NCBI GenBank assembly: GCA_963764165.1
Contig: CAVXRD010000003.1
Coordinates: forward strand, 320,001 to 384,000
From: an uncultured Verrucomicrobiae bacterium
GTDB lineage: Bacteria; Verrucomicrobiota; Verrucomicrobiia; Limisphaerales; Palsa-1400
Length of the DNA stretch: 64,000 nucleotides
Direction: 5' to 3'
Positions 33,801-52,343 of the stretch are shown in pieces; position 1 is the first letter of the stretch; each line of letters opens with the position of its first letter. The notes below the pieces were generated by a model, which was given only the letters and a program-made list of their open reading frames with translations, was not told the origin of the DNA and did no database searches. Position numbers and translations under genes: made by a program.

Positions 33801-36800
33801 CCACGGCTGCGCTTTTGGCGTTTGGAATCTTTTGTTTGACTCAAAGTTCGGCTTTTGGCGACAGCGCTAATCCGGATTCGGTAACGCAAACAGTGCGGGT
33901 TGAGGATCGATTTGCATTGGGCTCAGCCAAAATTCACTGGCAGGCCGAGAAAGGACAATCGCTTTCCCTTGTGTCGAGCAATGCGGTTTTGACTGCGGCG
34001 CATTTTCCTGTTGAAGCGCTGGAGTTGGTTTCCGCAACCGGCAAGGATCGCATTGTTGCCAAAAAGACCGGCGCCTGGGATATCGATGTTCGCTACGAAG
34101 CCGCGCTGACGACGAATCAGGGGCAGATTGGCTTTAGCCTGCCGACGCCTAGCGGATTGGTAAATCGCTTGGAACTGACGGTGGCCGGACGTGATGTCGA
34201 TGCGGCGTCGCCTGATTCGGTTTCCACGCAGTGCGAATATGTGAGCAGCAACACGACCGCGCGATTCGTTCTAAAACCCGGTCCGGCGTGGATCGGATGG
34301 AAGCCCCGCAGCCGCGACGCGGCCAAGGAAAAAGCCGTGTTCTACGCCGAGATTTCGCCCGTTTACGTTCCGAGCGCCGGCGTTGTTGAAGGCATTCACG
34401 CGGTGGTGATTCGCCCCGCCCAAGGCGAAGTGGGCGAACTTCTTCTGCGCGTTCCCGCAGGCGCGACCGTGACGGATGTCTCGGGCGCGGGCGAAAGCAA
34501 GACAGTTGTGTCGGTCTGGCGCTTTGATCCGGACACGCGCCAATTGCGCGTCAACTTGAACCCGCCGCAATCGCGCTCCTTCACGCTTTCGGTGAGAACC
34601 CGCCAAGCGGTCGGGCCATTCCCAATCGAACAATCCATCGGGCTTCTGGGCGTTGAAAACGCCGCCAGCCAAATCGGCCTGGCGGGACTGGCGACGGGAA
34701 GCGACGTCCAGCTCGATTCCGCCACTGCGCCCGCATTTTCGCCGATTAATCTCGAAGATTTTCCCAGCGATGCCGTCGCGGCGCTGCAACCGGAGATTCC
34801 CGGCTTAACGCTCCGCCGCGCCTTCCGCTATACCAACAGCGCAGCCGCCATTTCCATTAAAGCCTCTGCGGTTGAGCCTGATGTGCGGGTGGAAACACAA
34901 GACACATTGTCACTCGGCGAAGATCGAACGGTGCTGGCGGATAACGTGACCTTGGACATTCGCCGGGCCGGAATTTTCGATTGGAGCTTCGCGCTTCCCG
35001 CCGGTTTTGAAGTCGAATCCATCAGCGGCGCTTCGCTGAGCCAATGGACGGAATCGAAATCCGGCGCGGATCGAATCATCACGCTGCATTTGCTCGGCAA
35101 GACCACCGGCGCGCAATCGTTCGCGCTGAGTTTGGCGGGCGCGGGCGTCAAGACGGCGCACGGCTGGACCGCGCCGCAAATTGTGATTCGCGAAGCCGCC
35201 AAACAACAGGGAACTTACATGATCGTGCCCGAACAGGGCATGCGCCTGCAAACCACCATCCGCGAAGGCTGCACGCAACTGGATCCGCAAAAGTCTGGCA
35301 TCCGCCAGCGCGGAGTGCTGGCCTTCCGCATTCTGCAAGCGCCGTCCAGGCTTGTTATTGACATCGACCAGGTCGATGCGTGGGTGCAAGTCACCGGCTG
35401 GCAGCACGCCGACATCAGCCAGGCGCAAATCAAGGTCAGCGCCAGCTTCCAATACCAGATTGAAAACACGGGACTGAAATCGTTCCGCCTGCGCCTGCCG
35501 ACGGAAGCGCAAGGCGTCCGCTTCCAAGGCGAACAGGTTGGCGATTTCCTTCAGGAACCCGGCCCGGCGACGAATGGCCTTCAGACGTGGGAAGTGAAAT
35601 TGCGCCGCCGCGTGATGGGGCCATTCCTGCTGCAATTGAATTACGAAATTCCGCTGACCTCGCAAACGGCATCGCTGTCCGTGCGGGGCATCGAAGCGCA
35701 GGACGTGAATTCGCAGCGCGGATTTGTCACGGTGCAATCCGACCCCCGCATTGAAGTGAGCGTGGACGCGGTGCCTGCCGCTTTGCAGCCGGCGGAGTGG
35801 CAAAGCATCCCGCGCGAGTTGAAACGCGATCTCCCCACCGCCGCCGCCAGCCTCGCCTACCGCCTGGTCGAACCTGGATTTCAACTGCCGTTGAAACTTG
35901 TGCGGCACGAAGCGGCGAAATTGCTGCCAGCCAGAGTCAACTATATTGAATTGAGCTCGGCCGTCGCCGATGACGGCGTCATGCTGACCCAGGCCCGGCT
36001 GGAGATTGTGCCGGGCGACAAGCGGCTGCTGAGTTTGAGCCTGCCGCCGACCGCGCGCTTTTGGTTTGCGTTCGTCAACGACAGCGGCGTCTGGCCCTGG
36101 CGCGATTCCACCAACGTGCTCATTCCGCTGGAGCAGCAATCCGCCGGGAACAAGCCGGCCACGGTCGAAATTTATTACAGTTGCCAGGCGGGGTCGGCTT
36201 CGGAAAGCGCGTTGAACATGGATCTCGCCGCGCCGAAATTTGATCTGCCGCTGGAAAACATCACGTGGCATGTCTCGCTCGGGCAAAAGTGGCATGTGCA
36301 GAGCAGCTCGGGAGCGCTGCAATTGGAGCGCGCCGAGACTGAGGCGGCGGCGGACCCCGCGAGCACGCAAGCGTATCTGGCCAACGAAACGAATCTCCGC
36401 AAAGCCCGCACCGCGGAAGCCGAGCAATTTCTCGCGCTCGGAAATAATTCGCTGCAAACCGGCGATCCGCAACAGGCCCGCCGCGCGTTCCAGGCGGCCT
36501 ACGGATTGTCGAGGGACGACGCCGCGTTCAACGAGGACGCGCGGGTGCAATTGCACAACGTCAAATTGCAGGAGGCCCTGATCGGTTTCAACGCGCGGCA
36601 ATCAAGCGTCTCCGGCGACGCTGGAGCGCTGGGCGGAAAATTCCGCGCACTGCGCGGCAATGCGGCGCTCAATTACACGCAGCAGGACGCCAAAGACATT
36701 CTTGACAACAATTCCGCCGACGACAACGCGGCCTTCATGCGCCAATCAGAGAAGCTGGTGCAGCAGCAGGACGCCGCCGTGACAACTCCCGCCGCCATTC

Positions 36801-37009
36801 GCGCGAACATCCCCCAGCAAGGCCAGCGCCTGACCTTTCGCCGCTCGGTGGCGGTGGATTCGTGGGCGAGCCTGAATGTCAGCGTTGAAACGGTGCTGGA
36901 GCGGCATGGTACCATCGCGGGGCGCGCGGTTATTTTGGGAGGCGTGCTCATTTTCTTTGCCATCATGGCCGCGTTCGAATCCGGCCTGCTCCGCCCGGCT
37001 CGCTCGTGA
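30833..37009 (+). CDS. Very large (2058-aa) exported/membrane protein of unknown function, internally duplicated
   Basis: Signal peptide, two similar beta-rich halves separated by a cluster of hydrophobic helices, C-terminal TM helix. Confidence 0.85.
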   Translation: MKTPSIVSIVILLTASIAPLFAHADEKRPGHPLPARLPISLRDFKLTGDLTNDTAAFTLTAIAKVEEAHGGTLEILSGNIALTSFTQDPKMRLRTEGDRYTLVFDKKGEYPVRLQFDAAVAQAGGWNAVAFHVAPGVLQPIALRGMAADSQFRFPGAARLDWKDGQFASVLPEDGSVNLSWKEARRETEGKLFFSAELLEQISVSPGLLRQAALFHFKVMQGELNRVSARLHGAGEITRVQGDQVLSWNIEAIPQSADHRLVIQLNQAQRDQFALQIQAQQPLGAFPQTAEALRLSPELATGFSGSVRVVNEGAVRLEVAASGGMSQISPEQFPESDATRAAFRPGGNQRFAYHFAGGDSALRIQADQILPELSASELLSYHYGESEIDIDAEIELDIREAPLRELLLRVPRGFAVARLNAPSLSDSDYALSGPADSAQTDLRLTFGQPLTGRQLIQLRLERNQGAGETNWSLPRIDVAKAATVRGFAGLAADAGFRLTTDRSQGLTEMAPAFFPGKLPGIQSSFRLTDPNWSAVVKVERLPQTVQASVLHLFSIGEGIAYGSSVINYVISGAPVSSFRIELSNDCANVEFTGKDIRGWQTNAGGYVVQLHTPVSGAYTLLATYERPFKAQGDQVEFVGARPLDAQSEQGYTLVTSAYQFQVKPEEVSPALLPLEPAEVPPEYRLFTDAPLLAAYRYGSRPFNLRLSLSPLAQGDSLKQVVDRALLETHISKEGQAVTSIRYFIKNRGRPDFRLTVPKSAQLWSALVNGVAATPVVDGPASLIPLPQSADPNAVLELDLKMAAAAAQPELVHIEAPVTDAPVMLAEWKLEPDTGRRLVYQTGSVSPDGGTVDVSGFAQLARLWHGKSWADSRAIQPSNITLLAPVQQAGSPLKITVQNVPVKEAATAWIGWIWPAGIAVVAWIAGLLSGAVMKFLCRAAAWTLLAWAALRTPNGAGAFIWVLVACAAIHGLWPLSRRLRHWKPLAPGAPATAALLAFGIFCLTQSSAFGDSANPDSVTQTVRVEDRFALGSAKIHWQAEKGQSLSLVSSNAVLTAAHFPVEALELVSATGKDRIVAKKTGAWDIDVRYEAALTTNQGQIGFSLPTPSGLVNRLELTVAGRDVDAASPDSVSTQCEYVSSNTTARFVLKPGPAWIGWKPRSRDAAKEKAVFYAEISPVYVPSAGVVEGIHAVVIRPAQGEVGELLLRVPAGATVTDVSGAGESKTVVSVWRFDPDTRQLRVNLNPPQSRSFTLSVRTRQAVGPFPIEQSIGLLGVENAASQIGLAGLATGSDVQLDSATAPAFSPINLEDFPSDAVAALQPEIPGLTLRRAFRYTNSAAAISIKASAVEPDVRVETQDTLSLGEDRTVLADNVTLDIRRAGIFDWSFALPAGFEVESISGASLSQWTESKSGADRIITLHLLGKTTGAQSFALSLAGAGVKTAHGWTAPQIVIREAAKQQGTYMIVPEQGMRLQTTIREGCTQLDPQKSGIRQRGVLAFRILQAPSRLVIDIDQVDAWVQVTGWQHADISQAQIKVSASFQYQIENTGLKSFRLRLPTEAQGVRFQGEQVGDFLQEPGPATNGLQTWEVKLRRRVMGPFLLQLNYEIPLTSQTASLSVRGIEAQDVNSQRGFVTVQSDPRIEVSVDAVPAALQPAEWQSIPRELKRDLPTAAASLAYRLVEPGFQLPLKLVRHEAAKLLPARVNYIELSSAVADDGVMLTQARLEIVPGDKRLLSLSLPPTARFWFAFVNDSGVWPWRDSTNVLIPLEQQSAGNKPATVEIYYSCQAGSASESALNMDLAAPKFDLPLENITWHVSLGQKWHVQSSSGALQLERAETEAAADPASTQAYLANETNLRKARTAEAEQFLALGNNSLQTGDPQQARRAFQAAYGLSRDDAAFNEDARVQLHNVKLQEALIGFNARQSSVSGDAGALGGKFRALRGNAALNYTQQDAKDILDNNSADDNAAFMRQSEKLVQQQDAAVTTPAAIRANIPQQGQRLTFRRSVAVDSWASLNVSVETVLERHGTIAGRAVILGGVLIFFAIMAAFESGLLRPARS

Positions 37010-37111: not shown

Positions 37112-38110
37112 TTACACCTGCGGTGGAGTCGTTGGCGCCGCAGTATCTTCGGCGGCCTTATACTGCATCCGCGTCAAGGTGGAAAAGGCGTTCGGATGCC
37201 GGAGGTCGGCGTTGAATTCCGCGACGTGGTGGCGCTGCTTGGGATTGAAACCCCGATCAAGAATATACTTTGTCAATTCCTTGAACTCAGGCGTTTGTTT
37301 GACATCCGTCGACATAGCGTGAGGCTCGAGCGGAATATCCATGACAATCCTTGAACCCTCCTGCTGATCGGGCGGAAGGTCTGAAGTCCAGAATTGGGAT
37401 AAGACCACGACGCGCGTGCCAAGAAAAACCGCTTCCTCCAAATTGTGGGTCACGAAAATGACGGTCTTCTTGTAGCGCTCCCACAATTTCAGGATGAAGA
37501 TCTGCAAGTCTTCGCGCGTGCTGGCGTCCAGCGCGCCGTAGGATTCGTCCATGCAGATCAAGTCCGGCATTCCGAACAGGTCAATCGTAATGAGCGTCTG
37601 CGCGATGGCAACGCGCTGGCGCATGCCGCCGGATAATTCGGTCGGGTACTTGTCGCCGGCGTCGGAAAGGCGCATGTCGTCCAGATATTTGCGCGCCATG
37701 TCCCGCGCCTGCTTCCACCAGCTTCGCGAAAAGCGCTGGAGAATGCCCGCTTGAAACTCAAGGCCGAGAAGAATATTCCTCAGCACTGTCAAATGCGGGG
37801 CAATTCCGTAATTTTGAAAGACCACCCCCCGCGTGCGATCGGGAAATGACGGCAATTTCCCCAGCACCTCGAAGTGCTCAGCCCGCTGCACAATTTCCTG
37901 GCCAGTGAACAGTTTAAGCAAAGTCGATTTGCCGCAGCCGGAAGGCCCGACGAGCGAAACAAATTCGCCGCGGCTGACAATCAAATCGATATCGTTGAGA
38001 ACGGTTTTCACACGGCCATTGGCCGCGTCGTAATAGCCATGATAGGCATCCTCAAGATGGATGGCTTCGTTCCCTGTCAGCGCCGGTTTTGGTCTCGGAA
38101 TAAAATCCAT
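37112..38110 (-). CDS. ABC transporter ATP-binding protein (NitT/TauT type)
   Basis: GPSGCGKST, VFQ, LSGGMRQR, MDESYGALD, FVTH. Confidence 0.95.
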   Translation of the reverse strand: MDFIPRPKPALTGNEAIHLEDAYHGYYDAANGRVKTVLNDIDLIVSRGEFVSLVGPSGCGKSTLLKLFTGQEIVQRAEHFEVLGKLPSFPDRTRGVVFQNYGIAPHLTVLRNILLGLEFQAGILQRFSRSWWKQARDMARKYLDDMRLSDAGDKYPTELSGGMRQRVAIAQTLITIDLFGMPDLICMDESYGALDASTREDLQIFILKLWERYKKTVIFVTHNLEEAVFLGTRVVVLSQFWTSDLPPDQQEGSRIVMDIPLEPHAMSTDVKQTPEFKELTKYILDRGFNPKQRHHVAEFNADLRHPNAFSTLTRMQYKAAEDTAAPTTPPQV

Positions 38111-38114
38111 GATC

Positions 38115-38963
38115 TTAATCCTCGTTTGTGGTGTACCACCTGAACCACGGGAGCTTCAGCACGCCCTGCAAAATCAGATCGCTGGCATAGGCAAGCAAAG
38201 AAATGTAAATGACGTAAGGAATGATCAAGGCCATGTTCATGTATCGCTGCTGGAGATAGATTCGATAACCCAATCCTTCCGTGGCGGCGACGGCCTCCGC
38301 CGCAATGACGAAAATCCACGCGGCTCCGAGAGACACGCGAATCAAGTCGATCAAACGCGGCAGCATTTGCGGAGCGATTATCTTGTAGAGAACCTGGAAC
38401 TGGGTCGCTCCCAGCGTGAGCGCCTTGACGGTCAATTCATGCGGCATGCGCTCCGTCAGACCGGCGATGGTCCGCATCATGGGAATGCCAATGCCGAAGG
38501 CAATCAGGAACACTTTGGAATTCTCCCCCACTCCGAGCGCGACCAGCACGATCACCAAAACCGCGAGAGGATTGACGTTGGATAATCCAGTCACCAATGG
38601 CGACAGCAAAGCGCGAAATCCCGGAAACATTCCCATGGCGATTCCAATAAAATAACTCGCCACCGCGGCGATGCCGATGCCAATTCCGAGACGCTTCAAG
38701 CTGGCCTTGGTGTCTTCGACGAAGAGATTTTTGCCCGAGCGCCGATCTGGCACCGTGATAATGGTCTTCATTGCGTTGTACATTTGACGCACGGAAGGCA
38801 TCAGCTTGTCATCGGGATTTTTCAAGGCCCGGGCGTGGGAAACAAACATGTAGAGCCCGAGCAGCGCGGCCACCGGCAGCAGCCCAAGAAATCGCCCGAA
38901 GACCATGCCGGGCCGGGCGTGCAGGCCCCAAAACAGAGGAATTCTATGTTTCCGTTGTGTCAT
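38115..38963 (-). CDS. ABC transporter permease (NitT/TauT type)
   Basis: Multiple TM helices, KALTLGAT (EAA-like loop), GAAWIFVIAAEAVAATEGLGYRI. Confidence 0.93.
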   Translation of the reverse strand: MTQRKHRIPLFWGLHARPGMVFGRFLGLLPVAALLGLYMFVSHARALKNPDDKLMPSVRQMYNAMKTIITVPDRRSGKNLFVEDTKASLKRLGIGIGIAAVASYFIGIAMGMFPGFRALLSPLVTGLSNVNPLAVLVIVLVALGVGENSKVFLIAFGIGIPMMRTIAGLTERMPHELTVKALTLGATQFQVLYKIIAPQMLPRLIDLIRVSLGAAWIFVIAAEAVAATEGLGYRIYLQQRYMNMALIIPYVIYISLLAYASDLILQGVLKLPWFRWYTTNED

Positions 38964-39047
38964 GCTGCGTCGTCTGAATTCATGGACTGCAAATCGGTAC
39001 ACGTTGCGGGGCGGTGGTCAATTCGCATAAGAATCACGAGCAAACCC

Positions 39048-39118
39048 CGGTAGGGCGAGGCTCCTGCCGAGCCATTCCCCGGCACGGAAGGCGGCTCGGC
39101 AGGAGCCTCGCCCTACCG
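39048..39118. repeat. GTAG-type REP doublet inside the operon
   Basis: cggtagggcgaggctcctgccgagcc ... ggctcggcaggagcctcgccctaccg, perfect 26-bp arms. Confidence 0.92.
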
Positions 39119-39141
39119 AGCCTTATCAAGTTCGCTAGCGC

Positions 39142-40221
39142 CTACAGTTTTCCGCCAGCCGCAGCTTTTACGAATTCGCTGGTGTAATGGATTTTCACGT
39201 TTTTGGGATCGCCGATTATTTTTCCGCCCGGCAATTGAATGCCAATGAAATCAGGCGATTGCGCCCCCTGCCCCAAAAGTCCGTGGTCGAAACAGAATTT
39301 GGTGACTGTTTTCGCTGTGCTCTCAAGGGCCGGGCTTTCGATGAAAGCGATTCCGTCTTGCGGGGTGTAGAACATCTTCGTGGTTCGCAATTGCGCTTTG
39401 AATTCAGGCACTGTGCCGCCAGCGAACTTGGCCATGGCCTCAATCGCTTGATCGGCCTGCTTGCCCTGCCCTGACATGACGGCCATCGCTTCATACCACG
39501 CGCCGACCAGAGCCTTCTTGACAGCGGCGGGCGCATCGCGGCGCACAACCATCAGATCCTGGATTTCGCCGGGTATTTTTGAGGAGTCAAATATAAGTGT
39601 CGCTTTCGGGAGATTGCGCACCTGCATGAGAATGGGATTCCACGTCACGGTGGCTCCCTTATCTCCAGCGGTCGCGAAGGTGGCGCCGATGTTGGCGTCG
39701 GAAGTATTCACTTCGGTGACGTCGCCATCGTGCAACCCTCCGGCCTTCAGCGCCTGCGAGAGCAGATAGGACGAGACGGAATCTTTGACAATCAGGACCT
39801 GGCGGCCTTTGACGTCCTTGATGGTTTTGCCGTTGAAGAGGACCAAACCGTCATTGCCGTCCGAGTAATCTCCCACCACGAGCACATCGGAATCCACGCC
39901 GCCGGTGGCCGGCATATCGAGCGTATCCATGATGGTCATCGCGCAGCCCGCAGCCGCGCCGGACGTGTACTGATTGATGCTGGTGACGTAGTCGTTGATC
40001 AAAACGATTTCAACTTTGACCTTATACTTGTCAGCCCATTTCTTCATGATCCCGGAGTCGGCGATGTATTGCCATGGCTCCCATCCGGTGTAATGCGACC
40101 AGAGATAGCGATAGGGTTTGTCTGAATCATCTTCCCGCGCGACGGCCTTGAACGGAAGCAAAGTCCCGCATAACACGGCGGCAAGCGCGATTCCTGTTTT
40201 CCACATTTTCATATTTTGCAT
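39142..40221 (-). CDS. ABC transporter substrate-binding protein resembling the urea-carboxylase-associated (TIGR03427-like) family
   Basis: Signal peptide; WSHYTGWEPW..SGIMKKWADKY..INDYVTSINQYT, DYSDGNDG, SVSSYLL, VTWNP, IPGEIQDL. Confidence 0.88.
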   Translation of the reverse strand: MQNMKMWKTGIALAAVLCGTLLPFKAVAREDDSDKPYRYLWSHYTGWEPWQYIADSGIMKKWADKYKVKVEIVLINDYVTSINQYTSGAAAGCAMTIMDTLDMPATGGVDSDVLVVGDYSDGNDGLVLFNGKTIKDVKGRQVLIVKDSVSSYLLSQALKAGGLHDGDVTEVNTSDANIGATFATAGDKGATVTWNPILMQVRNLPKATLIFDSSKIPGEIQDLMVVRRDAPAAVKKALVGAWYEAMAVMSGQGKQADQAIEAMAKFAGGTVPEFKAQLRTTKMFYTPQDGIAFIESPALESTAKTVTKFCFDHGLLGQGAQSPDFIGIQLPGGKIIGDPKNVKIHYTSEFVKAAAGGKL

Positions 40222-40240: not shown

Positions 40241-41530
40241 TTAAGTGTTTTTCTTGCCTGTGGCAGAGAGATCCTGATCGAGATTCAGTGTCACGGCGGC
40301 TTTGTTGCCGCGTTCCATTCTGGCGATGGCTTCTTCGCCCATCGCGGTAAGATTATTCCGTTCTTTAATGGCGGCGCCCATTTGCTCAATGGCACGAGTG
40401 CGGAATGTATCCACATCATCCAGCGCCTTGATGGCGTCCTTCATGGCTTGCGCCAAACCGGCATCGGAAAGCTGGGCGGACGCCGCTTGTTTGTGAATTT
40501 CAATGCCCTGGGTGGCGAGAAGCTTCGCGTTGAAGGCAATCGTCCGATTGCCCACGTCGTCGAGGGCTTGAATCTTGGTCAACACTATCTTCTGGTTGGC
40601 CAGCGCCTGCGCGGCGGTGATGCCGATGAGCAAGGCGGGATACGTCACGTTTTTGCAACGGATGACGCCGCGGATGAGTTCCTTGTTGTTCTGAATGAGC
40701 ACCTCAAACATCAGCACTCCCTGCTGGTTCACCACCAATTGCTGCTGCAAATCGGTGATGCGCTGGCGCAGGCGATAAATCAGCTTCGTGTTGATATACT
40801 TTGCCTGGTCGCTTTGCGGCTCGAACTTCGCCACTTCGGCCGCCAGCTTCTCGTCAATCAACTGGCAGGTCGCGATGTAACGCGTGAGGTCGCGCGTGGC
40901 CTGGCGCATGGTGACTTGCTCGTCGCGCAGCGTGTCGATGTCGCGCTGGAGCTGCTGCTTGCTGAGTTCGACTGAATCGAAAAGCGCTTCGATCACTTTC
41001 CCGGAAGCCTCGAACTTTGTGAAATACTTGTTCAACTTGTGGCCAACGCCGGGAATCATGCTGGCGACTCGTCCCGCCCAGCCGGCTTCGAAGTTAAACC
41101 GGGACGGGTCAATTTCGTCGAACTGGACTTTCAAGTTCGTAAGAGCGTCAGCAATCCCCTGCCCTTCGCCCCCGCCGATCTGGCCGAGTCGCTTGAGCGG
41201 CTGCTTGAGAAGTTCATTGGCGACGGCGGCTTTGCGCTGCTGGATGACGCCGAGATTCTCGACGGAAAGCGCGGCCTGCTCCTGAGCATCTTCGTTTTCG
41301 ACCGGCACCTTCAAGAGTTTGCCGACGAATTCAGTGGCCTGCCGGTCAAGCTCGGGATCCACTTTTTTTTGCACGACCGCCTTGGTGATTTCATCCGGCC
41401 CAAGCAGGCCGAGGTCGTTTTTTATTTTGCCCGGGTCAGCCACCTGTGGCGCTGCTTCCCTAAGGGCGGATTGCTGTTGTCCCAGCATTTCCAGATTCTG
41501 CGTGGGGGCCGCGAGTATTTGTTCTGACAT
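40241..41530 (-). CDS. telA: Toxic anion resistance protein, TelA/KlaA family
   Basis: All-helical; KLNKYFTKFE, LRQRITDLQQQLVV.QQG, IQNNKELIRGV, ALANQKIVL, IHKQA. Confidence 0.88.
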   Translation of the reverse strand: MSEQILAAPTQNLEMLGQQQSALREAAPQVADPGKIKNDLGLLGPDEITKAVVQKKVDPELDRQATEFVGKLLKVPVENEDAQEQAALSVENLGVIQQRKAAVANELLKQPLKRLGQIGGGEGQGIADALTNLKVQFDEIDPSRFNFEAGWAGRVASMIPGVGHKLNKYFTKFEASGKVIEALFDSVELSKQQLQRDIDTLRDEQVTMRQATRDLTRYIATCQLIDEKLAAEVAKFEPQSDQAKYINTKLIYRLRQRITDLQQQLVVNQQGVLMFEVLIQNNKELIRGVIRCKNVTYPALLIGITAAQALANQKIVLTKIQALDDVGNRTIAFNAKLLATQGIEIHKQAASAQLSDAGLAQAMKDAIKALDDVDTFRTRAIEQMGAAIKERNNLTAMGEEAIARMERGNKAAVTLNLDQDLSATGKKNT

Positions 41531-41551: not shown

Positions 41552-42415
41552 TTATTTTTTAAGATCCTGTTCCAGCGAAATCGCCGGAGTTTGCCTGCTG
41601 TTTGCCCTGACTATCATTTGATTCAGCAAATCCATGGCTTCGGCCATCATCTCCCGTGGCGTCTGCGAAGCAGACCTGTCTTTCATTCGGACGGCGGCGT
41701 TGCCCGCCTTGTCCATCGTGGCTAGCGCCTCTTCATTCGCCGCCAGAAGCTCTTCGACTTCCTGCGCGGTTTGATCGTAAACGCCAGCCTGGTCCTTCAA
41801 TGCCTTGAGGCTCGTCTCGTCGGCGTGTGTCCGCGCGGGCTTCTGATCCAACGCCGTGACGCGTCCTTGAATTTCCGCGCGATTCATGTCTTTGACATTG
41901 AGAAGCAGCGTGACCACGCGATCGAGATTGTCCAGGCCAGAACGGTAGACTTGCTCCGCCGTTCCCATGACGCGCGAGAAGGTCAATTCGCTTTCCGAAA
42001 GCACTCTGCGGAACACGGCCAGCAGGTTTTGAAATTTTTCTTCGAATTGCTTTACCTGGATTTCTCCCTGCTGGCATCCGAGTTTCTTGAGATCGGCTGA
42101 CAACTCCGCTGACTTTTGCTTTTTTAGCCTTTCAAATTCGTCGTGCATCCTCGCGTAATGTTCCTGCATATAGGCTTCGCCTCTGCCGAGAAAACGGTAG
42201 GCCAGATGAGCCGCCCCCAACACCACCCCGCCCGTGGCAATGGCCACCGTGGCGGGCGCGGAAACAACCGAGAACAAACCCAGTCCGAAAGCCGTCACCG
42301 CGCCGAGCGCCGGAGGCCAGAGAGTCAGCGGATGCTGGATGGTGTCGAGAAAGGCCGTGCGTCGCGCGGCCTTCTCGCTGAAATCCATCTGCGGGCTGCC
42401 TGTGTCAACCTTCAT
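41552..42415 (-). CDS. Membrane-anchored coiled-coil protein, probable XpaC-like TelA partner
   Basis: Two N-terminal TM helices then a long helical region; lies immediately upstream of telA. The XpaC-like label rests mainly on position and topology. Confidence 0.65.
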   Translation of the reverse strand: MKVDTGSPQMDFSEKAARRTAFLDTIQHPLTLWPPALGAVTAFGLGLFSVVSAPATVAIATGGVVLGAAHLAYRFLGRGEAYMQEHYARMHDEFERLKKQKSAELSADLKKLGCQQGEIQVKQFEEKFQNLLAVFRRVLSESELTFSRVMGTAEQVYRSGLDNLDRVVTLLLNVKDMNRAEIQGRVTALDQKPARTHADETSLKALKDQAGVYDQTAQEVEELLAANEEALATMDKAGNAAVRMKDRSASQTPREMMAEAMDLLNQMIVRANSRQTPAISLEQDLKK

Positions 42416-42430: not shown

Positions 42431-44092
42431 TTACAACTGCGCTTGCGTGAGCTTTTTCACGCCGCGAACGCTATCGGCGAAATCATGCGTGAAATCACGC
42501 AGCGCCTCCGCGTGGTCCGAGGCAAAACTCTGGCGATAAACGCTTTCAACTCCGGCGATCACATCCTCAGGCCGCACGCCTTCAGTTGGCACGGGCTTTG
42601 AAAGCTCTCGCTCCAACGCCAGCCGTTTAGCTTCTTCCACAATGACCGGAATCATCGCCCCGCTGACAATATTCTCCAGCGTAAAACGGACGGTCGTGTT
42701 CGCGCCCGCCGCTCCTTCGCGCTCGATTTCGTAAATGACACGTTTCGCGGAAAACAGCTCCTCGGCGAAGATGTCTCCCAGCTTTTCGAGCGTCACCGTT
42801 TCCGAAACAGGAACATTCTTCATGTTCTTCAAAAAAATTTCGCGAGCGGCTTTTCGATCTGGACGGCTGATGCGCAATTTCACATCGATGCGGCCCTCCC
42901 GCACGGCGGCATAATCCAAAGACTCCGGCTTGTTGGTCGCCAATATAACCAAAGCGCCCGATTGGCGCACGCCCTGCATTTCCGCGAGGAAGGCGGGAAC
43001 GATTGTGCGCAACACGTCGCTGCTGATGCCGGAATCGCGCTTCGCGAGAATAGATTCGGCCTCGTCCAAAAATATGACCGGACGAATGCCGGTCTTCTCG
43101 AAAAACTTGCGCGCTCGGGCAAAAAGATGCCGGATGGTGGCTTCTGGAACTCCGACATATTTGTCCAAAATCTCGGGCCCGGAAACCAGGATGAAACCCT
43201 GTGATGCTTTTGCTCCTTTGGCGCTGCAGGTTGCGGTAATGGACGTATAGATGGCTTTTCCAAACATGGTCTTGCTGCATCCCGGCGGACCATAAAGCAA
43301 AACGCCCGACGGCGGTTTTTTCCCGAAAAACTTGTAATGCTCCGGATGCAGCATCGGTTTTTCCAAGGCATCCATGAAGCGGTTCTTCGCTTCTTCCTGG
43401 CCGCAAATGTCGTCCCACGAAACTTGAGTGGCCTCGTCAACCGAGAACGAATCATCCTCGAGGCCGAAGTTCCCGACGATCACCGTCGCGCTGGCATCGA
43501 GCACCACTCTGCCGCTGGGTTCGAGTTTGCCGGCGAATTTCCCGGCATAGACTGTCTTCCGGTTGCCTTGAAAATCCACCAATGCCATATCGCCGTCGAG
43601 CGCCTGGGCTACGAACGCAATGCTGCCGGAGGCGGCTCCCTTCTCGACGTCCACCACCGAAAGCGGGTCGCGCGAGAGTTTGAGATGGTCGCCCGGCTCG
43701 ACGGAAAATCCGTCAACCAAAAACTCCAAGAGCTGGCCGCCATAAATGGCAACGGCCAGTTTCTCCAATTCCTCGCCAGCCAATTCCAAATCGCAAGCGC
43801 CATCTTGGATGCCGGGCAAGCCAATCCGATAACGGTTCTTGTAGCCACCCGGAAATAAAACATAAGCCCATCCCGGCTCGTCCTGCTTTGCGCCGATGAC
43901 TTCGCCCGTCCCGCTCGCTTCGGGATTCAAGCCGAAATACTTGCTGTCCTTTCGAACCTTGACCAAGGTCCCCTTGCATCCCAGCCGGTCAGGCGACGGA
44001 AGCGGTTTGCGCGTCAACACTCGGATGACGGTCGCAAGGCCAAGCGGATAAATGGTCTTTGCCGCGCCCAATTCAGATGGAGTTGTTGTCAT
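42431..44092 (-). CDS. ARC/Mpa-like proteasomal-type AAA+ ATPase with atypical N- and C-termini
   Basis: AGGAG RBS before ATG 44092; GVLLYGPPGCSKT, GPEILDKYVG, IFLDEAES..R.SGISSDV..TIVP, ATN..GRIDVKLRISRPD, SGAMI..IV..AK; tandem OB-like region before the AAA module. Confidence 0.88.
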   Translation of the reverse strand: MTTTPSELGAAKTIYPLGLATVIRVLTRKPLPSPDRLGCKGTLVKVRKDSKYFGLNPEASGTGEVIGAKQDEPGWAYVLFPGGYKNRYRIGLPGIQDGACDLELAGEELEKLAVAIYGGQLLEFLVDGFSVEPGDHLKLSRDPLSVVDVEKGAASGSIAFVAQALDGDMALVDFQGNRKTVYAGKFAGKLEPSGRVVLDASATVIVGNFGLEDDSFSVDEATQVSWDDICGQEEAKNRFMDALEKPMLHPEHYKFFGKKPPSGVLLYGPPGCSKTMFGKAIYTSITATCSAKGAKASQGFILVSGPEILDKYVGVPEATIRHLFARARKFFEKTGIRPVIFLDEAESILAKRDSGISSDVLRTIVPAFLAEMQGVRQSGALVILATNKPESLDYAAVREGRIDVKLRISRPDRKAAREIFLKNMKNVPVSETVTLEKLGDIFAEELFSAKRVIYEIEREGAAGANTTVRFTLENIVSGAMIPVIVEEAKRLALERELSKPVPTEGVRPEDVIAGVESVYRQSFASDHAEALRDFTHDFADSVRGVKKLTQAQL

Positions 44093-44108: not shown

Positions 44109-45698
44109 TCAAAATGTCTCCGAGAGCAGCGATACCTCAACGCGCGGCAAACGATAGGTTTGGTAGGCGCGCTCACTTTCGCCGGGCAGCATTGGCAGCG
44201 GCCTGGTTCCGCCGTAGCCGACCGAACGAATTCGATTTGTGTCAATCGCATATGTGATCGTTAGATATCGAACGACCGCATCGGCGCGTTCCTGCGAGAG
44301 CGCAAGGTTTGCATCAGCGTCGCCGAGAAAAGAGGTGTGGCCTTCGACCAGAATTCGAAATGTCGGATAATGCTTGAGGCGCGAAACCATCGCATCGAGC
44401 TTTTCCTTCTCCGAAACCTCAAGCTCGCCGACCCCGCTTTGAAATAGGATGGGTTCGATATTCAGGCTGCCCACCGAATGCAATTTCGCCCACTGCGCAT
44501 CGGTCAGCGGCTTGAACGGTTTGCTCAGGCCATCGCCGCCTTCCATCGCCTTTGACGCAGTGCCTGTCAGCGCGGAAAAACCGTTCCGGATGCCGGTATT
44601 GTAGATTTGCTGAACGAAACTGCTGTTCACGATTCGGTATGGATCTTTGTCGGGTAGCGGATCCGATTTGAAATCCCCGCTCTGAACCAAAATCTCAACA
44701 GTTGACTGAATCGTGTCAATCAACCCCTGCTCCGCCATCTGGCCCGGCCCGCTGATTCCAAACCACTCCTGGCAATTCTCGCTCAGATTGGCCCAAGCCA
44801 CGCCGTTCAACATCTTCTTCACCGAGTCGGCGGGCAGTTTCAGTTCGGAGTGAATGTCCTTCTCAAGCTCGTCGGAATTGTCCGCGTAGAATTTCAGCGT
44901 CCGAAAGTAGGTTTTCAAAAACAAATCCACTTTTTCAGGATTCTTAAGCGCGAATTGGCGGTTGACCACGAGAATGTCCACAATCAGACGGCTGGTGCTT
45001 TCTGTTCCCAGGATTTTGACCACGCCCGGAATTTCAAGAGCCTTCGATACGTTGGGTTCCCAGAGAATCGCGACTGAGACCTTTTTCTCCTGCAGAAACT
45101 TGAGCGCTTCCTGCGAATCCTTTGTCTCGATTCGCTTGTTGGCGCTGATCTCCTTCAATCCTGGAACATTGAAATGCGAACTGATGGATTTCAAAAGATG
45201 CTGGCTGGGCGAAGCCGGAGTGTAAGCGATCTTCGGCATTGTGTGGCTGTCGAAGGTCTTGAACGACTCAAGGCTGGAAACAACATTGCTGTAGGCGACC
45301 ATCGCATCGCCGCCTTTGGATTCATCCACGATGGCCACAATTGTTCCGGGAAAATCAACCGGCGCGGCGTTGAGGATGTAAGAATCGACCGTTACCACGG
45401 CAAAATCCAAATCGCCATCCCGCAGCTTCTTCATCCGCGCGGGATAATCGCCGCCGTCGTTGGAAATATCGAGGCGATAGCCCTCGTTGCGCATCGCCTT
45501 TTTCATGCGGCCAGAACTGAGCGGGTAATATCCAATCCAGTCGTCAATCGCGACGGTTACTTTCCCTTTCAGATCCTTGTCATCGCTGGTTTGGATCTGC
45601 ATGCGGTTCTTCAAGACCGGGATCATCTTCTTGGCCACGTACAAGCCGGGGAGAATGAGCACCAGAAACAGAAGAACGAGAATGGGCGTTTTTTTCAT
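44109..45698 (-). CDS. Solute-binding (NMT1/TauA-like) domain fused to a C-terminal OmpA-like domain, N-terminal membrane anchor
   Basis: DDWIGYYP, DESKGGDA, WEPNVS, IVDILV; then ILF..VEGHTS..NLALSQERADAV..GYGG..RVEV. Confidence 0.87.
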   Translation of the reverse strand: MKKTPILVLLFLVLILPGLYVAKKMIPVLKNRMQIQTSDDKDLKGKVTVAIDDWIGYYPLSSGRMKKAMRNEGYRLDISNDGGDYPARMKKLRDGDLDFAVVTVDSYILNAAPVDFPGTIVAIVDESKGGDAMVAYSNVVSSLESFKTFDSHTMPKIAYTPASPSQHLLKSISSHFNVPGLKEISANKRIETKDSQEALKFLQEKKVSVAILWEPNVSKALEIPGVVKILGTESTSRLIVDILVVNRQFALKNPEKVDLFLKTYFRTLKFYADNSDELEKDIHSELKLPADSVKKMLNGVAWANLSENCQEWFGISGPGQMAEQGLIDTIQSTVEILVQSGDFKSDPLPDKDPYRIVNSSFVQQIYNTGIRNGFSALTGTASKAMEGGDGLSKPFKPLTDAQWAKLHSVGSLNIEPILFQSGVGELEVSEKEKLDAMVSRLKHYPTFRILVEGHTSFLGDADANLALSQERADAVVRYLTITYAIDTNRIRSVGYGGTRPLPMLPGESERAYQTYRLPRVEVSLLSETF

Positions 45699-45716: not shown

Positions 45717-46628
45717 TCAGCCGGCAATCTCCATATCAAAGCCAAGAATGCTTCGATGGCCATAATCAGGCGGGACTGCCGGATTTTCACGAATTTGAGT
45801 GACGTAGTGCCAGAGGCCCTTGTCCGATTGAAAAATCCCCTCCCCTTCCGCCAAGGTGCGGCGGACGTATTCCGTCTTCTTGTCTGGACCGTAAACGATG
45901 CTTTCTCCCCCGAGAATTCCCGCGCGCTCGATCACGAGGGCGGACACAATATAATCGGCGCCATCCTGGTGAATTCCCTCGGGCGCGTTATCGCCGCCGG
46001 AAAGAATGTCTGCAAAGATGAACATTTGATGGACGCTCATGCGCAGCTTTGCGCAACTGGGGTGGCGCTCGCGAACCATCTCGGCAAAGCATCCCATCAA
46101 ATGGCGCACTTGTGGATGCTCAGCGACCATCGCTTCCATTTCGTGAAAGACGCGCACAAGGCGTCGCGGATCATTCGCCCCGACGTTTTGTTGGTATTGC
46201 GCCGCCGGAACGCGCTCAAAACTCCACTTGCCCGCCGCCCGCATCAGATTGAAGCGAGCCACGGAGCGCTTGCGCCGACCGGTCATGCCGATACGGTCCA
46301 GTTCATTGCGATCCGTGTCGTCTAGTTGTTTTACTAGATCGTAGATGGCCGCAAGGTCTTCCTTGTTTGAATAATAATTGCGCAGAAATTCGCTGAGCCG
46401 ATCCGATTGCTCAGGAAATCGCTTTTTGAGAAGTTCTACTTTCGCCCGTTTCGCATCGTAAGGATCGAGATGCAATACGGAAAAAGTCGGGCGCATGTCG
46501 CACAAAAAGCTTTCCCGATCCACTCCAAACGTCTCGAGCGAGAAAACCCGCACCGGCGGAATTTCCGTCCCGAATTTTCGGGATAGCTCGGTTTCGTTGA
46601 TGATGAATTTGTTCACGGTGGCTTTCAA
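45717..46628 (-). CDS. 2-oxoglutarate/Fe(II)-dependent dioxygenase family protein
   Basis: APEGIHQDGADY (HxD), LWHYVT (distal His), HRSILGFD (2OG-binding Arg). TTG start overlaps the upstream stop. Confidence 0.87.
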   Translation of the reverse strand: MKATVNKFIINETELSRKFGTEIPPVRVFSLETFGVDRESFLCDMRPTFSVLHLDPYDAKRAKVELLKKRFPEQSDRLSEFLRNYYSNKEDLAAIYDLVKQLDDTDRNELDRIGMTGRRKRSVARFNLMRAAGKWSFERVPAAQYQQNVGANDPRRLVRVFHEMEAMVAEHPQVRHLMGCFAEMVRERHPSCAKLRMSVHQMFIFADILSGGDNAPEGIHQDGADYIVSALVIERAGILGGESIVYGPDKKTEYVRRTLAEGEGIFQSDKGLWHYVTQIRENPAVPPDYGHRSILGFDMEIAG

Positions 46629-47401
46629 TGCGCGTCCGGTTTGGCGCTGAACTCCGATTCAGCCAGGACGCTTTCAAGCCCCTGGTTGAGCTCCTGAAGG
46701 CTGGTGGCGTCGTGGTAAAGCGTCAGCCCGGGCCGGTTTAAGCTGTGGCCTTCGCCGATGCAGAAGCCAATCGTGCTGATCAACACCGGCGAATCGGAGA
46801 CGATCTTATTGACAATCTCGCGAGGATCGTCTCCCCGGTCAGCCTCGCCATCGGTCACAATCACCAGATAATATTCGCCGTAACCAAGCTGGCGCCTGGC
46901 CTGTTTTTGCAGAAGCGAATAGCCCAGCTTCACAGCCCTGCCCAGCGGCGTGTTGCTGTCCGAACGAACCGCCTGCAACGCTTGATTGAAAGCAGCGCGA
47001 TTAAGCGAAAGCGGCGCGCGTTCCGTCACACCCGCGCTGTCAAAGGCGCACAGCCCCAAGTTGTCGTCCGGCCTGATTTTGGTGGCGAAGGAGGCAATGG
47101 CCTGCTTGGCCGCCACGATCTTTGACAAATTCCCGGAACAATGGGACTCCGACATGGAGCCGGATCCGTCAAGCACAATCAGGAAGTTGCGGCGAGTCAG
47201 CAGCGCATCCAGGTCTTTCGCGGGGTCGCTTCCGTACCACGAGCGATTGTTGAAACCGCGAACCTCTTTCGGATCATCCAATACGGTCGTGACAATTTGC
47301 GGCCGCGGCGCGGACGGCGATCGATGGGGCCGCTGATTTCTCATGGAAATGTAGACCGCGACCAGAATGAAAACGAAAATGAGCCTTGCGAAAAATTTCA
47401 T
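46625..47401 (-). CDS. Membrane-anchored vWA domain protein
   Basis: N-terminal TM helix; LDGSGSM MIDAS, NTPLG, VTDGEA. Start overlaps the upstream stop (ATGA). Confidence 0.9.
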   Translation of the reverse strand: MKFFARLIFVFILVAVYISMRNQRPHRSPSAPRPQIVTTVLDDPKEVRGFNNRSWYGSDPAKDLDALLTRRNFLIVLDGSGSMSESHCSGNLSKIVAAKQAIASFATKIRPDDNLGLCAFDSAGVTERAPLSLNRAAFNQALQAVRSDSNTPLGRAVKLGYSLLQKQARRQLGYGEYYLVIVTDGEADRGDDPREIVNKIVSDSPVLISTIGFCIGEGHSLNRPGLTLYHDATSLQELNQGLESVLAESEFSAKPDAH

Positions 47402-49140
47402 TTGGCACCTCCATCCGGGGTCCACACTGATTCCGCCTCAACGTTGACGATGCGAAGTTCGCATCGCATGTTCGAATAAGCCGCCTCTTTGCTGGTGGGC
47501 CGGATTGGCTCGCCATCCGATGTCGTGCCGGTCTTGGGATCACTTATGCCGTGGCCCATCGTCGTGAACTGCGACGGGTCCAGCGCCACGCCTTTGGATT
47601 TGGCATAGTTGACAATCGCTTCCCGCACTTGCACCGCGCGATTCAGCGATGTGTTGTTGGCGGATTGCTTGATGCGCGAAAGAACCAGGGTGGGCTGCCC
47701 CTTGCTCTTGGCATCGCAGTATCCTGTCGGATCCGCGTAGCCTTCCACCGTGATGATCGCGCCGGCATAGATGGCAGCGCGCTTGATTACCTCGTCGAAT
47801 TGCGTGGCATAGGCCTCAGGGGCAAAGGTCGCCTGGTTCGGCTTGAAAAAGACCTCGAATTCGAAGAGTTGATTGTCCTTGAGAGTGCCTTGCTCGGAAC
47901 GCTGCGCCATGACTTTCGCCACTTCGCCGCTCTGAAATTTTGGAACCTCGCTGGCTACGATCTGCGTCAAACCCGATTTCAACGCATCGTAATCCAATCC
48001 CGCGGTATCCACCGCGACCTTCGATCCAATAAGCCCCAGGCCCACCAGCCCGCCCTGAATCTCATCCTGCAGGACAGCGAAACGGCGCGGAAATGTTGGG
48101 CTGGTGAACGTGTTGACGTTTCCAACAAAGCCGACGTATTCGCAATCCCCATAAAGGCCTTTCGCGTCCGCGACAGCCTGCGGGCTGTCAAGCAGAATGG
48201 TGGCAGCGGCGGTCATCAATTTGTTGTAATCCGCTTTTTGCGTCACGCTGTCGCGCATGAGCACCGCCAGTTTTTCCTGCGCCATGAGCAGGGCGTGCGC
48301 GAAGTTGATCACTTCAGCCTTGTGGGCCTGGAAGTAATCGCTGCGAACCGCGTAGACGTCGACAATAATGCGGCTGGCCGTTTTTGTTGACATCAAAATA
48401 TGCGCGCCTTTCACTGATTTTTCCGCGCCCGTTCCAACGCCGCTGTTGCTGGTGATCTCGGCCGCGTCGGGGCTGATCATGAACGCCGCGTCCACTGATG
48501 GGTCGGTGCGCATCGCGCCAGCCGGCGTGTCGTCCGTTCCGGTGAGATCCTTGACCCACTTAATCTTGACGTCGGTCAGCGCGATATTGGCGTCCGCCAG
48601 CACGCGGGTCAAATAATCCACATGCGGGCCGTAAGCCTGCAAAACGATGGTCTTTCCTTTGAGATCAGCCGGGGTCTTGATGCTGGATTTGACCACCAGC
48701 ACGTCGCCTCCAACCGAATAGGTAAGCTGCCCGATAACCACCGGTTTCACGCGCGGATCCTGCAGGGCTTCGATGGCCTGGTTCAACATGCCAAGCGTGC
48801 ATCGAAGATAGGCGGAATCACCGCGAATATAGGCCGCGATTTGCTTGGTGAAGTCATCCTCACGCTTGAGGCTGAACTTCAACCCTTGCGCGTCGAAGAC
48901 GCTGCCACTGGCCGTGTTCACCGCGCTGCCGTTGGCCAGGATGGTGGCAATGTCCCCGCCCCACGTAATGATGGGAAGCTGCATCGCGCCGCCTTCGCGC
49001 ACCGGCACGACCCCCTGCTTGATGACCTTCGCGAGCGGAGGCGAGTCGATGTATTTTACAGTTGCCGCCAGAGCCGAGAAGGCAGCCAAGCTGGGGAAGA
49101 TCACCGCAATCGCCAAGCTTGTCAGGGATTTTGTTTTCAT
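47398..49140 (-). CDS. Exported solute-binding-like domain fused to a divergent OmpA-like domain
   Basis: Signal peptide; ITWGGD, YSVGGD, DLKGKTI, IVDVYAVRSD; C-terminal VFF..VEGYAD..SLNRA..GHG..NMRCE. Confidence 0.85.
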   Translation of the reverse strand: MKTKSLTSLAIAVIFPSLAAFSALAATVKYIDSPPLAKVIKQGVVPVREGGAMQLPIITWGGDIATILANGSAVNTASGSVFDAQGLKFSLKREDDFTKQIAAYIRGDSAYLRCTLGMLNQAIEALQDPRVKPVVIGQLTYSVGGDVLVVKSSIKTPADLKGKTIVLQAYGPHVDYLTRVLADANIALTDVKIKWVKDLTGTDDTPAGAMRTDPSVDAAFMISPDAAEITSNSGVGTGAEKSVKGAHILMSTKTASRIIVDVYAVRSDYFQAHKAEVINFAHALLMAQEKLAVLMRDSVTQKADYNKLMTAAATILLDSPQAVADAKGLYGDCEYVGFVGNVNTFTSPTFPRRFAVLQDEIQGGLVGLGLIGSKVAVDTAGLDYDALKSGLTQIVASEVPKFQSGEVAKVMAQRSEQGTLKDNQLFEFEVFFKPNQATFAPEAYATQFDEVIKRAAIYAGAIITVEGYADPTGYCDAKSKGQPTLVLSRIKQSANNTSLNRAVQVREAIVNYAKSKGVALDPSQFTTMGHGISDPKTGTTSDGEPIRPTSKEAAYSNMRCELRIVNVEAESVWTPDGGAK

Positions 49141-49259
49141 AATAAATGCAATTCCGTTTGGACTGGAGTTTTCTCCAATCGCGCCCGGTTTCATCCCCGG
49201 GCATCCTGCCATTGTATACCGTCCGCTCCGAATCTACCTGAATTGACGGGCGGGGCAGC

Positions 49260-50329: not shown

Positions 50330-50850
50330 GGGTTCCCCAAGATGCCTGCCAAAGCCGCGCGCGGCGATGGGGCCTTTTCCCAGTTTTGACGCGGATACCT
50401 TTCATTTAGCCTACGGTGATGGCCCTATTGGCATTCCGACTGGGTTGAGGACAAGGTGTGCTAATGCCACGCGTCTCAAAATAATCATGACAAGCGCGCC
50501 GCCATAAACCCATTATGTCCAAACACGCTATTATCGGCCTTGATATTGGGGGAACCAAAACTTTTGCGGTGCTCTTCGATGACAAATTCGCGGTGGTCGA
50601 CAAGCGCCGGTTTAAAACTGAGCCAGGCAGCGGCGACCGGGTTTTTGAGAGACGGCTCTCGCGGGCAATCGCGGAATTGGTGGAAACAGCGGCGGCGCGG
50701 AAAATGCGGGTCGGCGCCGCGGGAATTGGCTGCTCTGGCAGCGTTGATTTTGATTCGACCGAATTGCAGATTTCCCCTCACATCCCGTTCCTCAAAAATT
50801 TCAATCTGGCTCAAAAAATGCAGAAGTGGACTAGGGCCTGTTAACACTAA

Positions 50851-50885: not shown

Positions 50886-51643
50886 GTGGAGCTTACAGAG
50901 AGTCAATATCAGCGGGTTGCTGATTGTCTGCCGCGGCAGCGCGGCAACGTGAGCATGACCAATCTGCAACTTCTCAACGCCCTGCTCTATGTGGTGGAGC
51001 ATGGGTGCAAATGGCGCGGCCTGCCAAAACATTTTGGCAACTGGCATACGATCTACACCCGCATGAACCGCTGGAGCAAAGCGGGCGTGCTGGATCGAGT
51101 CTTCGCCCGGCTCCAGCAGGAGCAAATCCTGGCGATCCGGATCGAGCAAGTCTGCTTGGACAGCACGACGATCAAGGTTCACCCCGACGGCACCGGGGCG
51201 CTAAAAAAAACGGCCCACAGGCCATCGGGCGCTCCCGAGGCGGTTGCACCACCAAAATTCATCTGGTTGCCGCGAATGCCCAGTGCGCCTTAATGCTCAA
51301 GCTTTCCCCCGGCCAGGCGGGGGACGCGCCGCAAGGACGCGAGCTTTTGCAGGCGGGCGGGCCGGTTCCGGCAGGGCTTCCACTCATCATGGACAGCGCC
51401 TATGAAGGGGACGAGACTCTGCAACAGGCGCGGGAATTGGGCTACGCTCCAGTGGTTCCTCCTAACCCCCGACGCTTAAATCCGTGGGAGTATGACCAAA
51501 CCCTTTACCGACGCCGCAATGAGATTGAACGGCTTTTTCGCCGACTCAAAAGCTACCGCCGAGTCTTCAGTCGCTTCGACAAATTGGATGCGTTGTACTC
51601 CGGATTCGTCGTCCTCGCGCTCATCGTGGAGGCGTTACGTTAG
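50886..51643 (+). CDS. IS5-family transposase in two ORFs joined by a probable programmed -1 frameshift
   Basis: OrfA has GCKWRGLP..FGNW.TIY.R..RW and LDST; an A8 run at 51203-51210 leads into the -1 frame with GRSRGG.TTKIH, DSAYEG and YRRRNEIERLF. Confidence 0.93.
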
Positions 51644-52343
51644 TGTTAACAGGCCCTAAAAGCCCCATATCACTTGGGAACGATGTTCAAATGGGGCTCT
51701 ATGGCGAGCAGCAATTCGGCGCCGCGCGCAATTCCCGGCATGCCATCGGGGTCTTCATCGGAACCGGAATTGGAGGCGCTTTGATTTTGAACGGCGAACT
51801 GCACCGCGGCGCCAGCGGAATCGCGGGCGACATTGGACATTATCTCGTTCAGCCCCTCGGAACAATTGGAGGCCCCGAACGCCAAGGCGTGCTGGACAAT
51901 GTCTGCAGCCGGACTGCCATCGCGGCCGAAGCGGCGGTCTATGCCTCGCGGCAGTGGGCGCCTAACCTTTTGAAAATGGGCGGGACTGATCTTGCCATCC
52001 TGCGCAGCAAAACCCTCGCCCGCGCCATCAAGGCCGGCGACAAGCAAATTGAGCAGTTAGTCCTCAGCCGATCGCGCCTGCTGGGAATCGTGCTTTCCAA
52101 CCTTGTTGACTTTATCAATCCAGACTGTGTGTTGCTGGGGGGTGGGTTGGTCGAGGAAATGCCCGGCCTGGTATTGAAGGGCGTCGGCAAGGGCATCGAA
52201 GAATACTCTTCAGCGGCGGCATTTAAAAAATTGAAGATTGTGACCACCAAACTGAGAGAATATGCCGTCGCCACCGGCGCCGCGAAGATGGCCTGGGACA
52301 GCTTTATTGGAAAAAACAAAAGCAAGAATGGCGATAAATAATC

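Follow-up and report, generated by a model that had tools for sequence, protein, structure and literature searches.

A MIB/HERC2-like barrel in an exchangeable OB-fold slot of ARC/Mpa-like AAA+ ATPases

Introduction

In the Mpa/ARC ATPases, the choice of substrates is known to proceed through Pup and the N-terminal coiled coil. The window analysed here, i.e., a stretch of 64,000 nucleotides from an uncultured Verrucomicrobiae bacterium, encodes a protein related to these ATPases. This protein, P0001 (42431..44092, reverse strand), is an ARC/Mpa-like AAA+ ATPase of 553 residues without the N-terminal coiled coil and without a GxYx tail. An earlier note, made from the sequence of this DNA, had proposed that the first OB fold of P0001 is interrupted by a domain resembling Mib_herc2, and that this domain stands in for the missing coiled coil. 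The locus thus raises two questions: what is the inserted domain, and does it replace the coiled coil as the receptor for substrates?

The ATPase and its scaffold

The start codon of P0001 is the ATG at position 44092, with an AGGAG ribosome-binding site directly upstream, and three orthologues (L001-L003) use the identical start methionine. The open frame can be extended upstream to position 44251, where it overlaps the preceding gene, and this extension bears no resemblance to a coiled coil. Only 15 residues precede the hinge proline, and no score was obtained against the ARC coiled-coil profile, the extended upstream frame included; the absence of the coiled coil that had been noticed from the sequence is therefore upheld.

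The assignment of P0001 to the ARC/Mpa type is based on several lines of evidence. The protein matches TIGR03689 with an E value of 4e-76 and 256.6 bits, below the equivalog cut-off of 504.75; this cut-off is strict outside Actinobacteria, since the canonical ARC of the source genome, with 417.9 bits, also falls short of it. A profile of the N-termini of the family matches that of canonical ARC N-termini with 97.9% (hhalign), and the AF2 model of the whole protein (pLDDT 84) retrieves Mpa structures at the top of its Foldseek list. As is characteristic of ARC/Mpa, tandem OB folds precede the AAA+ module according to hhalign, AF2 and Foldseek. All these elements lie on the reverse strand: strand β1 of OB1 (44009..44044, residues 17-28, from hhalign to canonical ARC N-termini and the AF2 strand) comes right after the hinge proline P16; the remainder of OB1 (43637..43765, residues 110-152) and OB2 (43463..43624, residues 157-210) were placed by hhalign and AF2; and the AAA+ module (42803..43435, residues ~220-430) matches PF00004 with an E value of 3.7e-26. 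Walker A, the Walker B sequence DEAE, the aromatic pore loop KYVG and the arginine finger are all present. Within Walker A, a serine (residue 273, window 43273-43275) replaces the usual glycine before the catalytic Lys274, a substitution that is common to many armless orthologues.

The C-terminus of P0001 reads QAQL and not the GxYx/HbYX motif for 20S docking. A penultimate tyrosine or phenylalanine was found in 3 of the 153 C-terminal tails of the family; one member, P0222, ends in GQYL, the Mpa 20S-docking motif.

The insert in OB1 is a MIB/HERC2-like barrel

The barrel (43778..43981, reverse strand, residues ~40-105) lies within an insert of ~90 residues in the β1-β2 turn of OB1, as established by profiles, hhalign, AF2 and Foldseek. 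The letters that had been quoted for residues ~38-105 are present, window positions 43981-43778 corresponding to residues 38-105 of P0001. When the N-termini of the family were aligned by hhalign with those of 35 canonical ARCs ending in GQYL, the insert fell exactly at the β1-β2 turn, which in these ARCs comprises 3-4 residues. In agreement with this, the AF2 model of P0001 shows the strand 17-28, then the barrel, and OB1 resuming at residue 110. Both approaches thus bear out the view that the barrel interrupts the first OB fold. The short turn of the canonical ARCs, together with the four insert-free proteins among the 152 family members, distinguishes the segment from an ordinary OB loop.

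The sequence of the P0001 segment alone matches the Pfam domain MIB_HERC2 (PF06701) with an E value of 0.02 and 15.2 bits, below the gathering score of 33.5; for this reason the insert is called MIB/HERC2-"like" and not a member of PF06701. Its sole PDB match at the sequence level is MIB1 4xi6 (E=0.055). MIB_HERC2 is matched by 11 of 18 orthologous inserts, the best E value being 1.6e-5. A profile of the inserts pulled 91 proteins out of 1.84 billion representatives. Scanning of the 89 new ones gave, by a hand count in which one protein sits in two groups, 38 above the MIB_HERC2 cut-off, 19 that match below it, and 12 further ARC-like ATPases; the E values of the 38 are inflated, given that most of them are multi-repeat proteins with summed scores. 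Comparison of the profile of 77 ATPase inserts with 36 Pfam-defined domains (the 38 mentioned above minus two with partial coverage) yielded a hhalign match of 99.09%, with an E value of 1e-18 over 62 columns, and each of the 36 domains scores 16-46 bits, whereas reversed controls do not exceed 3.6. There is some circularity in this test, since the 36 domains were first retrieved with the insert profile.

The structural comparison is a check that does not depend on this retrieval. The AF2 model of the isolated insert (pLDDT 91) is a five-stranded SH3-like barrel, and its three best Foldseek matches are HECTD1 3dkm, 2dk3 and MIB1 4xi6, with TM scores of 0.64-0.67 to Mib-herc2 structures. VIA-align also places 2dk3, a HERC2 fragment and 4xi6 first, with Tudor, PWWP and KOW barrels within 1-1.4 Z. 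The C-terminal signature GW..V.W..G..N.YR.G...DL is kept in P0001 with F for the second W; the N-terminal signature RGPDWxW..QDG is not, as it reads R.DS(K/E)(F/Y) instead and both tryptophans are lost. The 99.09% profile match and the top three structures confirm that the insert is a prokaryotic MIB/HERC2-like barrel homologous to MIB/HERC2, as the earlier note had claimed from the pattern, even though the P0001 segment stays below the Pfam cut-off.

The barrel is under purifying selection: across four verrucomicrobial genes the dN/dS of the insert is 0.19, versus 0.08 for the OB folds and 0.04 for the AAA+ module, and eight positions are invariant in the barrels of the armless clade plus P0025. 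MIB/HERC2-like barrels also occur alone or in tandem in small unannotated proteins (P0029, P0032, P0035, P0039, P0043 and P0044/P0234). Among these proteins, one cluster member is labelled "archaeon" (one record), and this protein also has an ankyrin repeat.

A swappable cassette slot

A full-length search with P0089, a protein of the Patescibacteria group by its source name, listed 120 relatives; this list leans towards MIB carriers, since the query itself has a MIB insert. The family set comprises 155 AAA-bearing proteins minus three that are truncated at the N-terminus (P0024, P0161 and P0203), i.e., 152 proteins. Of these, 81 have a MIB-like barrel in the slot (four of them with additional KOW-like repeats), 27 a class B insert, 20 single or tandem KOW/SH3-like domains, and a further 20 inserts of other kinds; in 4 the slot is empty. 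Profile-profile comparison indicates that the KOW-like and MIB-like inserts are distantly related (97%), and it detected no similarity of the class B inserts to either the MIB or the KOW classes (<5%). Class B, of ~95-105 residues, has no convincing match in Pfam or the Atlas and represents an uncharacterised domain; its carriers are P0134, P0142, P0150, P0165 and 23 others. Three proteins (P0072, P0193 and P0221, at ~residues 270-340) combine KOW-like repeats at the β1-β2 site with a MIB-like barrel at what appears to be a second, later site in OB1, a layout that suggests independent insertions.

In a tree of the family built without arm and insert, with 151 labelled proteins (P0019 was left out as a fragment), the insert classes are interspersed. 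The labels require 38 changes, versus 69 when they are shuffled; for MIB and class B alone, the values are 16 and 22.6, respectively. This pattern is one of some phylogenetic signal and yet many cassette exchanges. The clearest case is the pair P0128 (MIB) and P0165 (class B), which share 95% identity after the insert and 81% in the arm, versus 18% in the insert; four other tested pairs show the same pattern, with 84-94% identity after the insert. Altogether, 168 pairs of different class exceed 80% core identity, although these pairs are not independent of each other. The clusters of the swapped pairs hold more than one contig or member, which argues against chimeras. The β1-β2 turn of OB1 is therefore a swappable cassette slot, with exchange between close relatives. 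The earlier note had left it to be checked if orthologues keep or swap the insert; relatives do swap it, placing unrelated inserts on scaffolds that are 95% identical.

It could be argued that this loop merely tolerates insertions, and that the barrels are near-neutral passengers supplied by a reservoir of small, SH3-like mobile domains. The insert-free members, the stand-alone and tandem barrels mentioned above, and the fact that the dN/dS of the insert is the highest in the gene, agree with this proposal. Nevertheless, the insert is kept in 148/152 members, its dN/dS is far below 1, its eight positions are invariant in the armless clade plus P0025, and whole domains are replaced instead of decaying, so that we regard it as highly improbable.

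The ATPase family is mobile, and is present in Patescibacteria, phages and a few Verrucomicrobia, where it is rare and patchy. Members were found in 3, 7 and 5/401 genomes in three overlapping samples of Patescibacteria, as well as on viral contigs, and an orthologue of P0001 in 4/60 relatives of the source genome. The listings returned by our literature search, in which subscription papers were mostly outside reach, contained no paper on the exchange of these cassettes or on the coexistence of barrel and arm.

The barrel precedes the loss of the coiled coil

Another aspect of this family is the segment that precedes the hinge proline. At least 28 residues were found at this position in 56 of the 81 barrel-bearing ATPases, and 30 of these 56 long-armed proteins score at least 8 bits against the canonical ARC coiled-coil profile, versus 0/25 of the short ones. 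In the full-length search, a long N-terminal arm occupies the coiled-coil position in 46 of the 47 relatives that carry the barrel. It follows that the barrel did not originate as a substitute for the coiled coil that binds Pup; it is older than the loss, and the idea that it stands in for the missing element has to be abandoned in this form. In the wider family, the coexistence of both elements is best explained if the barrel supplements the coiled coil as an additional specificity module and does not substitute for it. The 23 armless proteins of the tree group together with a support of 0.72, which increases to 1.00 when two short-armed sisters are added, and each of the 23 has kept the barrel.

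The gene context was compared at 24 loci, the window included. At eight of these, a mini-gene of 55-88 codons, whose product has weak similarity to Pup (PF05639, E 0.13; TIGR03687, E 0.017), lies 3' of the ATPase gene, often with DUF1360; six of the eight have the arm, and two are cut by the contig end. One of the eight, L196, represents an intermediate in which the TelA operon, a short arm, the barrel and the mini-gene are found together. At the seven armless TelA loci (window, L001-L005 and L197) the barrel is always present and the mini-gene was not found with the mini-gene profile, which is a weak one. Six other loci belong to related solute-binding/ABC clusters; their ATPases diverge at the N-terminus and contain either a non-MIB insert or no insert. 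The mini-gene was not seen at these six loci, nor at the remaining three, two of which are armed. The arm and the Pup-like mini-gene were lost only in the TelA-operon subclade to which P0001 belongs, which leaves the barrel as the sole evident module for recognition there. The simplest order of events would be that the barrel came first, and that the entry of the gene into the operon was followed by the loss of both arm and mini-gene. In the armless subclade the barrel may plausibly be the working recognition site.

The mini-proteins end in a CxC-type motif in 6/8 cases (L195:5619-5885, L191:8571-8759, L016:8848-9018, L099:7176-7382, L102:3632-3841 and L020:944-1144), and the next gene usually encodes a membrane protein with DUF1360, with a CxxC seen in L191. 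The genomes tested yielded no ligase. It is possible that the mini-protein is a tag or adaptor that is based on thiols and works without a ligase.

The operon and its neighbourhood

P0001 is encoded within an operon on the reverse strand. Its first genes encode a fusion of a solute-binding (NMT1-like) and an OmpA-like domain (47398..49212, from Pfam; conserved in L002-L005), a vWA-domain protein (46625..47425; VWA_2, E 7.5e-13), a 2OG-Fe dioxygenase (45717..46628) that is an optional member, as it is present in L004 and absent from L002, L003 and L005, and a second solute-binding/OmpA fusion (44109..45698, from Pfam and NCBIfam). Following the ATPase gene there is a protein of 287 residues (41552..42415), which is conserved in 5/5 loci and has no convincing Pfam or NCBIfam match; it may be XpaC-like, a proposal made solely from its position before telA, and no XpaC profile match was obtained. 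Next are a TelA-family coiled-coil protein (40241..41530; PF05816, E 2e-50) and a NitT/TauT-type ABC importer (37112..40221) with its binding protein (TIGR03427, over the cut-off), permease and ATP-binding subunit.

Two other features of the window were observed. A transposase-like pair of open reading frames at 50886-51643 seems, from the translations, to split a ROK-family gene (50515-50844 and 51643-52341); and at 26991-37009, on the forward strand, a vWA/TPR protein of 1132 residues is followed by a protein of 2068 residues almost without Pfam match.

KOW/Tudor-like folds are often RNA-binding or parts of complexes. Given that such domains are among the alternative cassettes, that the tryptophans of the eukaryotic motif are not retained, and that the operon is membrane-centred, the barrel could instead dock or localise the ring, be it at a membrane complex, an adaptor, RNA or the ribosome, and take no part in selecting the threaded substrate. 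The nearest structures are the Mib-herc2 domains of E3 ligases that bind proteins, and the repeated swapping of unrelated domains suits a specificity determinant better than a fixed anchor, although it is compatible with an anchor; overall, we consider docking unlikely.

Proteasome and tagging genes

The source genome is not that of a bacterium without tags, since an armed canonical ARC is encoded next to Dop, and UBact, prcB, prcA and PafA are found elsewhere, all on contigs other than that of P0001. The arc-dop pair is separate from ubact-prcB-prcA-pafA (L010:6675-8426, G000 C2, and L011:6473-9607, G000 C4). A second, stand-alone gene of the proteasome fold (PF00227) was also observed (L012:7934-9007, G000 C1), adjoining a transposase-like open reading frame. 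P0001 and the canonical ARC share 33% identity over 339 residues, and P0001 is encoded in the TelA/ABC operon and not together with pup/dop/pafA/prcAB. The canonical ARC and several of its metagenomic relatives have GVI/GIV-like tails, not GQYL.

Genes of the Pup-ligase family are present in the four verrucomicrobial carriers tested. Among the Patescibacteria, 13 carriers were found and eight were tested; none of the eight, which are MAGs of unstated completeness, gave a match to PF00227 (20S) or PF03136 (Pup ligase), and two of them (G001 and G784) have the armless operon. The missing GxYx of P0001 is weak evidence regarding the 20S proteasome, because the canonical ARC of the same genome lacks this motif too and Cpa is reported to bind the 20S without it (PMC6466877). 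The absence of 20S and ligase matches in the Patescibacteria carriers is stronger evidence for independence from the proteasome.

These data also bear on the proposal that the barrel is a substitute receptor that replaced the coiled coil and through which untagged proteins reach the 20S proteasome of the source bacterium. P0001 does lack the coiled coil, prcA and prcB are encoded in the genome, all tested verrucomicrobial carriers have ligase-family genes, and the GxYx tail is reported to be dispensable for Cpa (PMC6466877). Yet barrel and arm occur together in nearly all barrel-bearing relatives of the full-length search, the same armless operon exists in the two Patescibacteria genomes mentioned above in which neither 20S nor ligase was found, and the orthologue is patchy among relatives of the source genome and lies far from the proteasome loci. 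For these reasons this proposal appears quite improbable.

A possible mode of action and its significance

Mpa is reported to recognise Pup through its coiled coil and to thread substrates by means of its OB rings and pore loop (PMC8142254), and the MZM domain of MIB1 to bind the N-box peptide of Jagged1 (PMC11887331). By analogy, P0001 would form a hexameric ARC/Mpa-like unfoldase with six barrels per ring, located on the OB ring, and each barrel would bind a short peptide motif of the target, or of an adaptor, in the manner of the MIB1 MZM. Threading through the pore loop, which is intact, would then unfold or disassemble the target without a conjugated tag. The likeliest clients would be encoded in the same envelope-stress operon, namely TelA, the XpaC-like protein or the ABC importer, and they would be remodelled and not degraded by the 20S. 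On balance, we favour the view that the six barrels recognise a peptide motif and pass the protein on to the pore in a tag-free manner, most likely for the remodelling of an envelope complex encoded in the operon.

A broader and more tentative proposal, which we consider possible but hold with less confidence than the former, is that these proteins are reprogrammable AAA+ unfoldases. Recombination would swap the reader barrels (MIB/HERC2-like, KOW-like, class B and tandem arrays) in one loop of the OB ring, and in this way change the targets without a ligase or a proteasome. The prokaryotic barrels would be the pool behind the domain of the eukaryotic E3 ligases, and would already have selected proteins for unfolding. 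Such swapping could be likened to the exchange of receptor-binding or target-recognition domains.

The exchange of barrels among relatives suggests a plug-in choice of targets. The family keeps the motor and varies the fused domain at one site, even on scaffolds that are 95% identical, so that a single swap can test whether the fused reader retargets the unfoldase. If this were true, it would provide a compact principle of tag-free targeting, useful for synthetic tools of protein removal. In addition, these results show that a domain known from the E3 ligases of eukaryotes has a homologue in bacteria and, on one record, in an archaeon, and they provide a candidate remodelling ATPase for the TelA operons, which are poorly understood.

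Comparison with known systems

The system most similar to P0001 is Mpa/ARC (TIGR03689; PDB 7pxd and 5kwa), with which it shares the hinge proline, the tandem OB folds and the AAA+ module with an aromatic pore loop; Mpa, the mycobacterial proteasome ATPase, is also the best structural match of the whole protein in Foldseek. In contrast with Mpa/ARC, P0001 has the insert of ~90 residues in OB1, lacks the Pup-binding coiled coil and the GxYx tail, scores below the equivalog cut-off, and is encoded in a TelA/ABC operon apart from the canonical ARC of the genome.

With the Mib_herc2 domain (PF06701) of MIB1/MIB2, HECTD1 and HERC2 (PDB 3dkm, 2dk3 and 4xi6/4xi7), the insert shares the five-stranded SH3-like barrel, and the family inserts share the pattern G.rV, G.V, GW..V, G..N.YR.G and DL.L. 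It differs in that the P0001 barrel has Phe for the second Trp and a five-residue insertion before the last strand, and in that it is housed in an ATPase, whereas Mib_herc2 is found in ubiquitin ligases.

The UBact/Pup locus of the source genome includes an ATPase with a scaffold related to that of P0001, and the armed members of the family resemble such a locus in the small gene with weak Pup similarity located 3' of the ATPase gene. In contrast with the UBact/Pup locus, the Patescibacteria carriers tested yielded neither a ligase nor a 20S gene; and the operon of the window is without the CxC mini-protein and the DUF1360 membrane protein, both of which are typical of the armed members.

Finally, Cpa is described as a second AAA+ ring of a proteasome-bearing bacterium, encoded outside the Pup locus, without a penultimate tyrosine, and with its mode of substrate recruitment stated as unknown (PMC6466877). 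P0001 is likewise a second AAA+ ring encoded outside the Pup locus and without the penultimate tyrosine; Cpa, on the other hand, is a homologue of Cdc48, whereas P0001 has the OB-OB-AAA layout of Mpa.
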